A stretch of DNA of 45,398 nucleotides from Candidatus Woesearchaeota archaeon (GTDB lineage Archaea; Nanobdellota; Nanobdellia; Pacearchaeales; GW2011-AR1): NCBI GenBank assembly GCA_964391715.1, contig CAYMMZ010000001.1, positions 1-45,398 of the forward strand, written 5' to 3'. Under the pieces are notes generated by a model that saw nothing but the letters and a program-made list of their open reading frames with translations, was not told where the DNA came from and did no database searches. Both the position numbers and the translations under genes were made by a program. Shown piece by piece: positions 26,924 to 45,398 of the stretch (its first letter is position 1; each line of letters opens with the position of its first letter).

Positions 26924-26998
26924 TCTAAAACATGGCCCCGAGGGGATTTTGATCACCAGATCACCTACTGGGTGAACCCTGGGTTCAAATCTAAAACA
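26924..26998 (-). other. tRNA-Lys 3' trailer module: inverted T-arm copy plus a second, interrupted copy of the tRNA 3' half carrying a 24-nt insert
   Basis: 26-nt direct repeat 26924-26949 = 26990-27015. GATTTGAACCC (minus sense) is complementary to the tRNA's own T arm. The 24-mer TGATCACCAGATCACCTACTGGGT at 26950-26973 is identical to 45318-45341. Confidence 0.7.
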
Positions 26999-27073
26999 TG
27001 GCCCCGAGGGGATTTGAACCCCCGACACCTGGATTAAAAGTCCAGTGCTCTAACCAGGCTGAGCTACGGAGCC
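26999..27073 (-). tRNA. tRNA-Lys (anticodon UUU), no encoded CCA
   Basis: Minus-strand sequence GGCTCCGTAGCTCAGCCTGGTTAGAGCACTGGACTTTTAATCCAGGTGTCGGGGGTTCAAATCCCCTCGGGGCCA folds as a cloverleaf: 7-bp acceptor stem with one G-U, D arm GCTC/GAGC, anticodon arm CTGGA-CTTTTAA-TCCAG, T arm GGGGG-TTCAAAT-CCCCT. Confidence 0.92.
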
Positions 27074-44982: not shown

Positions 44983-45291
44983 TCATTTCAGAAACCCAAA
45001 AAACTTCTGCTCAAAATCCACAACCTTACCATCCAAAACCCCAACTCCTTCTTTCTTTAAAATTTTAATCTTATTCCTAACACCTGAAGCAAAACCGCCA
45101 ATTCTTCCGCCACTACTAACAACTCTATGACAAGGAACTTGAGGAGCATAAGGATTTTTGTTCATAGCAGTCCCAACAGCACGATACGCCCGAGTCCCAA
45201 GAGCCTCCGCCAAAGCCTTATAAGTCGTCACACGACCCCGAGGAACTTTTCTCAACAAATCATAACACTTCTCGCTAAATGTTTTTTCCAT
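44983..45291 (-). CDS. ogt: methylated-DNA--protein-cysteine methyltransferase, catalytic domain only
   Basis: VPRGRVTTYKALAEALG...NKNPYAPQVPCHRVVSSGGRIGGF (PCHRV active site). At 102 aa it lacks the usual N-terminal domain. Confidence 0.9.
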   Translation of the reverse strand: MEKTFSEKCYDLLRKVPRGRVTTYKALAEALGTRAYRAVGTAMNKNPYAPQVPCHRVVSSGGRIGGFASGVRNKIKILKKEGVGVLDGKVVDFEQKFFGFLK

Positions 45292-45301
45292 TCAATATAA
45301 G

Positions 45302-45363
45302 TAGCCCTGCCAGGATTTGATCACCAGATCACCTACTGGGTCAAGCCTTGGTTCGAATCTCCA
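45302..45363 (-). other. second tRNA 3' trailer module with the same 24-nt insert as at tRNA-Lys
   Basis: 16-nt direct repeat 45302-45317 = 45364-45379 (the tRNA's 3' end). The 24-mer at 45318-45341 is identical to 26950-26973. GATTCGAACC (minus sense) is complementary to this tRNA's own T arm. Confidence 0.7.
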
Positions 45364-45398
45364 TAGCCCTGCCAGGATTCGAACCTGGGTCGCGAGGT
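45364..45398 (-). tRNA. tRNA, 3' part only (truncated by the window end); identity undetermined
   Basis: In minus sense: ...ACCTC GCGAC CCAGG-TTCGAAT-CCTGG CAGGGCT A. This shows a T arm and the 3' acceptor strand. An implied A1:U72 pair with A73 is initiator-like, but the anticodon lies outside the window. Confidence 0.7.

Follow-up and report, generated by a model that had tools for sequence, protein, structure and literature searches.

Immediately behind the tRNA-Lys(UUU) gene of a Candidatus Woesearchaeota archaeon (contig CAYMMZ010000001.1; positions 26,924 to 27,073 of the 45,398-nt stretch analysed here, the window) lies a 24-nt sequence that interrupts a second, partial copy of the tRNA and follows a segment in which the T arm of that tRNA is repeated in inverted orientation. 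This unit is a discrete, precise insertion without target-site duplication that occurs in many unrelated contexts in Pacearchaeota-like DPANN genomes, and among its insertion sites the loops of sequences able to form hairpins are over-represented. Comparison of these sequences leads us to favour, on balance, a reading in which the region would be the scar of a very small insertion at a tRNA gene, mobilised in trans and accompanied by a target-templated duplication, made in situ, that spared the tRNA. On this reading the region is not part of the expression pathway of the tRNA.

The tRNA-Lys and tRNA-Gln loci of the window

Positions 26999-27073 of the minus strand hold a single canonical tRNA-Lys(UUU) (ARAGORN; Rfam RF00005, 71 bits), which is complete and is the functional copy, CCA not being encoded. 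In tRNA sense the order of parts from here on is the tRNA, TGTTTTA, GATTTGAACCC, A, GGGTTCA, a foreign block of 24 nt, and AAATCCCCTCGGGGCCA-TGTTTTAGA, all on the minus strand. The trailer TGTTTTA (26992-26998) and the GA that comes next repeat the native trailer TGTTTTAGA that is present behind the second copy; the GA common to trailer and inverted segment makes a 2-nt microhomology where the two meet. The inverted segment (26981-26991; GATTTGAACCC in tRNA sense) is an antisense copy of the T arm of tRNA-Lys itself, the two forming a perfect 11-nt inverted repeat, GGGTTCAAATC/GATTTGAACCC, at 26981-26991 and 27011-27021. It is followed by a one-base centre (A) and GGGTTCA, that is, the 5' strand of the T stem in sense together with the first bases of the T loop (26973-26980, delimited by the sequence and by an alignment of four orthologous filled loci), with which the displaced second copy of tRNA-Lys begins. 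The inserted unit, CCCAGTAGGTGATCTGGTGATCAA, as delimited by the exact repeat and by comparison with empty sites, occupies 26949-26972, with boundaries that can be placed to ±1 owing to the flanking A's, and the remainder of the second copy, (A)AATCCCCTCGGGGCCA, running from T-loop position ~58 to 73 and continued by the native trailer TGTTTTAGA, fills 26924-26948. When the 24 nt are taken out, the T loop of the second copy, TTCAAAT, is restored. The first trailer and the end of the tRNA belong to a perfect 26-nt direct repeat (26924-26949 = 26990-27015), and since 9 nt of it are trailer specific to this lineage, the second copy must have been made in situ and not imported. Every element of the layout that the original prediction had described is present at the coordinates given there, as judged by ARAGORN, Rfam and a repeat search, and the same structure recurs in other metagenome-assembled genomes (MAGs) and metagenomes (L001 = L008; L006 = L011 = L025 = L039; L026).

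The second tRNA of the window, cut by its end (3' part at 45364-45398, minus strand), is tRNA-Gln(CUG) as read from a longer contig (full gene at 9856-9928 of L075, also in L076 and L077). Behind it, again on the minus strand, the interval 45342-45363 comprises the trailer TGGA, the T arm copied in inverted orientation (GATTCGAACC, 45350-45359) and AAGGCTTG, a degenerate piece of the T arm in sense; then come the window's second copy of the 24-mer (45318-45341, an exact match) and a displaced second copy of the tRNA-Gln 3' end, AATCCTGGCAGGGCTA (45302-45317), which stops exactly at the discriminator base and after which lies an ogt/MGMT-like gene (44983-45291, minus strand; open reading frame (ORF) with a DNA_binding_1 domain). 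The inverted GATTCGAACC pairs with the T arm of tRNA-Gln itself (45350-45359 with 45376-45385; 10 nt, 100%), and the direct repeat is exact over 16 nt (45302-45317 = 45364-45379; 19 nt at 95% by repeat search). With repeats that match the T arm and 3' end of Gln, the flanking duplication and the inverted segment vary with the host tRNA while the 24-mer is constant, as the original prediction had described.

A 24-nt unit inserted without target-site duplication

The window holds exactly two occurrences of the 24-mer as first delimited, TGATCACCAGATCACCTACTGGGT (26950-26973 and 45318-45341), as had been claimed, and none of 100 shuffled sequences gave any match. The boundaries of the inserted unit were taken from empty and filled sites in the Bud32 gene and in the so-called B-elements, both treated below; these define it as CCCAGTAGGTGATCTGGTGATC(T/A)A and move the earlier 24-mer by one base (window ~26949-26972). 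An exact search of 185,579 species-representative genomes found the 24-mer in 2 only, both of them DPANN archaea (five stretches), and a search of JGI/ENA metagenomes with the 21-nt core returned 34 stretches. There are 44 exact copies of the 21-mer core in 41 DNA stretches, several of which are the same place assembled repeatedly, and all copies of the 24-mer were ascertained by exact-match search.

The contexts of the 24-mer, compared in register, form five groups. It stands behind tRNA-Lys (four lineages), tRNA-Gln(CUG) and tRNA-Arg(CCU), the last carrying two to three tandem units (context group A). It also lies within a ~95-nt repeat, the B-element, of one MAG (group B), antisense in the gene of the Bud32/PRPK kinase (group C), and at the centre of hairpins of two further small-repeat families (groups D and E). 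The unit stands in either orientation relative to genes and has no coding content; since it encodes nothing, it would have to be mobilised by something else. Variant cores (ACCCAGTAGG-N4-5-CTGGTGA) occur as well, as do 'long forms' in which ~50 nt are nested behind the CCCAG of the core (L014, L033).

In the gene of Bud32/PRPK, a member of KEOPS, the insert is exactly eight codons long, the antisense 24-mer being read as KHF|RSPDHLLG|QNH (L007 4348-5061, minus strand; also L012, L017-19, L024, L028, L035 and L038), and it is in frame in 7 distinct sequences, L028 having two tandem copies. Among the closest 120 Bud32 clusters, 119 have a clean 8-residue gap at this point and one has the insert, with one change. 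At the DNA level empty sites read ...AAACACTT|CCAAAATCA and filled sites ...AAACACTT (TAGATCACCAGATCACCTACTGGG) CCAAAACCA, where the parentheses enclose the insert and CCAAAA flanks the junction; this comparison sets the unit as CCCAGTAGGTGATCTGGTGATCTA, 24 nt with a target duplication of 0. Filled and empty alleles interleave by similarity, the filled L024 having its closest match in the empty P0002 (91% identical) and being at most 87% identical to other filled sequences; over so short an alignment this is no more than a hint of repeated gain or precise loss. B-elements with and without the block are found on one contig, with GGATC|AAAAAA in the empty form and GGATC-A-(22 nt)-AAAAAA in the filled one.

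The B-elements themselves (~95 nt, ...TTATGCAATGRCAAAGYCCTTGCGGATC...GATTTTTGCTAATGG) are found with and without the 24-mer at 690-850 and 4680-4780 of L005 and in L002-L004. In L005 one of them lies directly past the stop codon of a membrane-protein gene, and the last 38 nt of this gene are duplicated around it in a copy that still encodes LMEVYLTPILF followed by a stop. We rejected a reading of this duplication as the template and variable repeats of a diversity-generating retroelement, for which it is too short and has three differences only.

With the unit removed, a perfect stem of 5 bp or more closes on the insertion point in 10 of 32 distinct contexts, compared with 2.6% of shuffled controls, and the insertion sites include tRNA T arms, palindromes and other small repeats. 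Duplication measures 0 nt at Bud32 and the B-elements and 16-38 nt, variably, elsewhere, one analogue at a non-tRNA site being a 38-nt segment that is duplicated around each 24-mer in L014. The 24-mer has no inverted ends, and a miniature inverted-repeat transposable element was discarded as a description since there are neither terminal inverted repeats nor a target-site duplication of fixed length. In being ~20-30 nt long, non-coding and dispersed, with precise filled/empty polymorphism and nesting, it conforms to what defines very small dispersed repeats, a likeness of kind only that implies no relatedness of sequence.

The hairpin repeat of family E (GGTTTTTAAG...CTTAAAAACC...GTTTTTA) carries canonical or variant cores at 1440-1720 of L014 and 1340-1500 of L033 and in L030, L031, L036 and L037. 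L014 contains an array of 62-nt period in which not only the 24-mer but also the 38 nt that separate its copies are repeated, and the ~50-nt block nested in L014 and L033 contains tRNA-like pieces, namely GAAGATTGTAAATCTTC, which resembles an anticodon arm, and TCGAATCC. The arrays of L014 and L022 were considered and rejected as CRISPR arrays: their intervening segments repeat identically, as the 24-mer does, and the window is without cas genes.

It could be asked whether such structures arise in assembly, as artefacts or chimeras at repeated sequence, since short direct repeats can mislead de Bruijn assemblers and the low-coverage L055 looks chimeric at its tRNA. We regard this as extremely improbable. 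The structure at tRNA-Gln is identical in three independent assemblies (L075, L076, L077) and several assemblies share the one at tRNA-Lys, from which we conclude that it is not an assembly artefact; identical structures come from independent ENA, JGI and NCBI assemblies, the same layout is found in different lineages with diverged linkers, and the distinct Bud32 sequences all keep their insert in frame.

One architecture with several cargos

The arrangement seen in the window is part of a wider pattern. At 12 of 36 distinct tRNA loci there is a second copy of the last ~16 nt of the tRNA, starting 38-97 nt downstream, and at three of these 12 a further 3' copy at 122-186 nt; the tRNAs concerned are Lys, Gln(CUG), Gln(UUG) twice, Arg(CCU), Leu, Val and Met. 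The usual order, followed by most of the 12, is an intact tRNA, 0-9 nt of native trailer, the inverted cognate T arm, a short loop, the sense 5' strand of the T stem, a cargo, and the 3' copy from T-loop position ~58, so that the repeats run from there to 0-9 nt past position 73. Apart from the cargo, all parts derive from the local target, and at the other loci the inverted segment follows the T arm of Gln, Arg, Val or Leu (Val TTGAACTTGGG, Leu GATTCGAAC; at Lys it reads (A)TTTGAAC). An inverted T arm was not detected at tRNA-Met or at the tRNA-Gln of L038, and the copy in L019 is degenerate. Junction microhomology is seen again at the tRNA-Arg of L022 (TTGAA).

As cargo these loci carry either the 24-mer or a member of several longer families, at least two of which recur at different tRNAs; the M1 cargo contains ...ATTCGCTTTGAG...CGAGATGCAAAT... 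and the M2 cargo ...CTGAAAAGTT...ACTTTT. The 24-mer core is missing from both tRNA-Gln(UUG) loci, from tRNA-Leu(CAA), tRNA-Val(GAC), an inverted tRNA-Lys locus and tRNA-Met, and from the third copy in L001. The original prediction had offered, as one explanation, the footprint or att-like site of a miniature element that targets tRNA genes and duplicates its target, and in outline this survives, given the filled and empty sites, the recurring 3' duplications and the tRNA-Lys orthologues that are without the insert; what it could not have seen is that several cargos share one architecture and that the 24-mer also stands at non-tRNA sites without duplication.

Individual loci vary the theme. Downstream of tRNA-Val(GAC) in L023 (3751-4030) there are two perfect tandem units of 101 nt, each made of the inverted T arm TTGAACTTGGG, CTG, CCCAAG, M1 cargo (~65 nt) and a copy of the tRNA 3' end; the M1 family is also present at tRNA-Lys in L064 and L066. 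The tRNA-Lys of L001 (4008-4180) has three 3'-end copies, with the 24-mer insert followed by a second, 88-nt insert (M2); this cargo has a relative in the insert behind tRNA-Leu(CAA) of L022. In the window's own genome, ~2.8 kb from tRNA-Gln, a tRNA-Met(CAU) (L075 7020-7190) has an 81-nt insert downstream that contains a hairpin of its own (CTCTTCA...TGAAGAG), and behind this insert the last 16 nt of the tRNA appear again; neither the 24-mer nor a clear inverted T arm is present. L029 (1-420, minus strand), a contig of low coverage, holds tandem units resembling tRNA-Arg(UCU) whose T loop contains the 24-mer and which have no matching 3' acceptor strand, one of them with a ~49-nt AT-rich block after position 10; these may be decayed or split genes. 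Another dispersed motif, AGCGAATCnnTCG / CGAnnGATTCGCT, is found in intergenic positions and inside the M1 cargo (L023 ~1640, minus strand; L033 ~1290; L064 ~800).

Gain, loss and decay at orthologous tRNA-Lys loci

Relatives of the window were sampled through RpoH, independently of the 24-mer, which yielded five rpoH lineages with the orthologous gene order dUTPase / dCMP kinase-deaminase / tRNA-Lys / rpoH / rpoB. Two of the five have a clean empty site at tRNA-Lys (loci without the insert are L050-52 and L058-63), the empty L058 being the nearest relative of the filled L026, and one lineage (L006) is filled and has its 24-mer intact; decayed cores were found in none of the five. In L064 a different insert, of 95 nt and with an 18-nt flanking repeat, lies at tRNA-Lys, and in L070 (964-1000; also L071-L074) the inverted/sense hairpin TATTTGAAACATAGGTTC is kept while the 24-mer and the second 3' copy are absent, a locus that has either lost these parts by deletion or represents an intermediate state. 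L055 (767 nt) is identical to L001 upstream of tRNA-Lys and to the L050 lineage downstream, and is probably a chimeric assembly or a recombinant with its breakpoint at the tRNA.

Because the linker is homologous in all four filled tRNA-Lys loci, with ~60% identity between distant pairs, we take these loci to descend from one old event. Since then the parts have aged differently. L006, L026 and L070 have an extra, uncompensated A in the inverted arm, and the second copy in L006 differs from the 17-nt 3' end of its tRNA by several substitutions and an indel; across the four filled loci the 24-mer is 23-24/24 identical. The decay in some lineages means that the duplicated tRNA piece and the hairpin are not under selection, and the constancy of the 24-mer means that it is either constrained or repeatedly re-copied from other copies.

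Decay of the inverted arm and second copy around an intact 24-mer marks a scar and not an alternative exon, and this bears on another explanation in the original prediction, namely that the inter-copy stretch or the 24-mer is spliced out as a non-canonical T-loop intron, with the second copy serving as an alternative 3' exon. T-loop introns are known in other archaea; joining the T loop of the first copy to the second would yield an unchanged tRNA, a weak candidate for a bulge-helix-bulge (BHB) motif (a GGUU/GAUC central helix with two G-U pairs) is present at tRNA-Lys, and the gene of the tRNA-splicing endonuclease EndA adjoins tRNA-Gln. The proposal nevertheless fails at several points and we consider it very improbable. 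The first copy is already a complete tRNA, the second is decayed in the L006 lineage and, like the inverted arm, in L026, empty orthologues exist, and in Bud32 the 24-mer is antisense and translated as RSPDHLLG. The BHB-like candidate is absent at tRNA-Gln and in the other contexts, and a scan for the 3-4-3 motif, which recovered a synthetic positive control, gave no candidate in any context that would excise the 24-mer and restore a 7-nt T loop. The endonuclease here (173 aa, tRNA_int_endo_N + tRNA_int_endo; L075 9169-9690, minus strand, divergent beside tRNA-Gln(CUG) and just past the end of the window) is of the single-unit type and putatively an alpha4 enzyme (classes as in PMC5829648); alpha4 enzymes of such a size take strict BHB motifs only. 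Its position next to tRNA-Gln and the 24-mer scar is probably a coincidence. A processing decoy, the remaining suggestion of the original prediction, is likewise argued against by the decay of the second copy and inverted arm.

If the 24-mer is constrained, it might be a functional DNA or RNA motif kept by selection, for example one that binds a protein or the ribosome (in the latter case anti-Shine-Dalgarno-like), presented by the tRNA-linked hairpin, and with two GGUGAUC and two GATC. Its 23-24/24 identity in four tRNA-Lys lineages beside a linker of ~60% and a decayed tRNA copy would fit such a role, as would the one intact and zero decayed 24-mers in the RpoH sample; that it is found in both orientations would agree with a role at the DNA level. 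In tRNA sense the unit holds AGGUGAUC and GGUGAUC, and also two GATC sites and TGATCA; we take AGGUGAUC and GGUGAUC to be complementary to the usual 3' end of archaeal 16S rRNA, GAUCACCU, hence Shine-Dalgarno-like. No consistent spacing of these motifs to start codons was found among the copies, however, and position and orientation relative to genes are inconsistent (after tRNAs, in hairpins, antisense in a coding region). Scans with Rfam 15 of the window region and 17 loci, at gathering and at permissive (E ≤ 10) thresholds, returned only tRNA and 5S, none overlapping the 24-mer; its minimum free energy folds differ by context with no stable fold common to them, and z-scores are unremarkable for the tRNA-linked copies. 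The invariance, moreover, is inflated by ascertainment through exact matches, and the motif leaves the precise 24-nt insertion unexplained, so that it would be an addition to an insertion model and not an alternative to one. Taken as an explanation of its own we think it distinctly unlikely. Readings of the 24-mer as a kink-turn, C/D box, H/ACA, loop E, repetitive extragenic palindrome (REP(GTAG)), dif or origin recognition box (ORB) were rejected by eye, their defining bases being absent.

A possible route of insertion

In the reading that we favour, the cargo would enter the single-stranded T loop of the tDNA, and the event would be survived only if repair of the break regenerates the whole tRNA. 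The direct duplication and the inverted piece could then be what a staggered break leaves when it is repaired by fill-in together with snap-back or template-switch synthesis, a repair through which the tRNA gene would be rebuilt upstream. Recombination between the direct repeats might later delete the insert cleanly, giving rise to empty loci, and unequal exchange might produce tandem arrays; the duplicated tRNA piece and inverted arm would persist as neutral relics, and the 24-mer would be held constant by selection on its sequence or by re-copying from other copies. A reverse transcriptase stop at 1-methyladenosine 58, or tRNA-primed cDNA, was rejected as the source of the second copy, which has no CCA and includes the trailer.

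A number of points weigh against this scheme. The mobilisation step is wholly inferred, no enzyme, excised form, intermediate or transcript having been observed, and the ordered architecture, found at seven or more tRNAs, is more regular than random break repair predicts; the constant order of parts suggests a dedicated integration reaction behind it. Junction microhomology is clear in two cases only, and the 4-nt trailer TGGA at tRNA-Gln is not native. The four filled tRNA-Lys loci are one ancient event and not four; many of the hairpin contexts belong to few families (D, E), so that independent insertions are fewer than copies, and in these the hairpin could belong to the larger repeat. The invariance of the 24-mer is partly a matter of ascertainment, and the evidence throughout is comparative analysis of metagenome assemblies.

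The main rival is an origin in decayed attachment sites (attL/attR): plasmids or viruses with an integrase would have integrated in the T loop, bringing a tRNA 3' end of their own, and would since have shrunk to 40-110 bp, leaving cargos that are attP-adjacent sequence. The stretch from the T loop to the 3' end is reportedly a classical sublocation for integrase crossover, and here the direct repeat spans just this stretch and leaves the gene whole. Repeated integrations are brought to mind by the several cargo families and by successive inserts at a single tRNA, such as the three 3' copies of L001, empty orthologous sites exist, and archaeal tRNA fragments of such origin are documented (PMC9897764; PMC3293823). 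Yet the inserts are all at most ~110 bp, and no copy of any tRNA tail was found more than 300 nt away in the loci examined. No integrase, transposase or reverse transcriptase was detected by Pfam in the 28 ORFs of the window or among the domains in 20 kb around tRNA-Gln (L075), and the exact core is absent from the 2.9 million viral contigs of IMG/VR, in which a degenerate pattern met only unrelated high-GC contigs, and this speaks against a viral origin. The lineage-specific trailer within the repeat indicates a copy made in situ, one cargo stands at three or more tRNAs, each time with a perfectly cognate inverted arm, which would call for a switch of attP on every occasion, and the 24-mer occurs alone and repeat-free in Bud32 and the B-elements. 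Taken together we judge an attachment-site origin to be unlikely.

The insertion reading could be carried further, to the proposal that Pacearchaeota-like DPANN archaea harbour undescribed ultra-small mobile sequences, the 24-nt unit and its 50-100-nt relatives among them, that are inserted into single-stranded DNA hairpin loops, and tRNA T loops especially, by dedicated machinery working through target-templated direct and inverted copying that rebuilds the hit gene. We put this forward tentatively and with more doubt than conviction. If it were true, these loci would show in progress the origin of redundant tRNA fragments, of T-loop insertions and, in the end, of split or intron-bearing tRNA genes in archaea.

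Relation to known systems

The original prediction knew of no described element with this layout, and none was found in the literature that we searched. Small dispersed repeats (SDRs) of 21-27 nt are reportedly present in heterocystous cyanobacteria (Nostoc). They resemble the 24-mer in having no coding capacity, in their many contexts, in precise insertion as judged against empty sites and in being nested in small repeats and hairpins; they belong to another domain of life and are unrelated in sequence, and the 24-mer adds an in-frame insertion in a conserved protein gene. Stereotyped tRNA 3' duplications with inverted T-arm copies are not known to have been described for SDRs. Of other repeats tolerated in frame in protein genes, Rickettsia palindromic elements are ~100-150 bp long and palindromic; they share with the 24-mer the character of a selfish repeat and differ from it in size and in the inverted ends that the 24-nt unit does not have. 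IS1397 is alike in aiming at the loop of a palindromic unit and unlike in being a full insertion sequence that has its own transposase and makes a short duplication of fixed length.

Archaeal non-canonical (BHB) tRNA introns, for which transposition is said to have been proposed, are similar in that one lineage has a short, near-identical sequence at T-loop positions in several of its tRNAs, and an archaeal host with a splicing endonuclease is common to both. Unlike them, the 24-mer interrupts a redundant partial copy only, has no consistent BHB, and is found besides in hairpins outside tRNAs and, in antisense, within a protein gene. The att duplications of integrative elements (PMC9897764; Caldiarchaeum model, PMC3293823) are alike in the intact tRNA and in a 3' copy that starts in the T loop, and are also polymorphic and repeatable, whereas the inserts here measure 40-110 bp and are recombinase-free, the local trailer is repeated, an inverted cognate T arm is usual, and the cargo is found elsewhere without repeats. 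Synthesis-dependent microhomology-mediated end joining with snap-back templated insertions has been described in break repair of Drosophila and mammals (PMC2943611, PMC5728401); its junctions likewise show a direct repeat, an inverted adjacent copy and short microhomology and are favoured at sequences that form secondary structure, but the process is not from archaea, and it explains neither the source of a foreign cargo nor the constant order of parts.

Neither SDRs nor archaeal tRNA fragments are known to show the combination of inverted T arm, cargo and 3' copy, or a 24-mer common to scars, hairpins and Bud32. Very small insertions at tRNA genes that leave a working gene apparently form an undescribed class, and the mechanism behind them stands a substantial chance of being new. 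The findings would extend very small mobile repeats, which have barely been studied, from cyanobacteria to archaea, and the clean filled and empty sites, including an in-frame site in the gene of an essential KEOPS kinase, make the insertion reaction tractable. With short 3' duplications and a stereotyped inverted T-arm piece at about a third of the tRNA loci examined, tRNA genes in these reduced genomes appear to be under continuous attack and repair, which bears on the long-debated origin of disrupted archaeal tRNA genes, be they fragments, genes with non-canonical introns or split genes. At a practical level, partial tRNA copies and 8-codon inserts will mislead the annotation of tRNAs and genes in DPANN MAGs.

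Host and neighbouring genes

The homologues of window genes are labelled as Pacearchaeota, Nanoarchaeota or 'archaeon' MAGs, and the host is a DPANN archaeon. The genes recognised in the window are housekeeping only and comprise those for SMC, EF-1alpha, EF-2, S7, S12, RNA polymerase H/B/A, ribonucleotide reductase and NrdR, together with DHFR, ThyX, dUTPase, RFC and the Ogt-like protein. Ordinary tRNA introns are also present among the stretches collected, ARAGORN placing a 41-nt intron in the tRNA-Gly(UCC) of L022 (116-229) and a 90-nt intron in the tRNA-Glu(CUC) of L031 (10269-10431), each at the canonical position.

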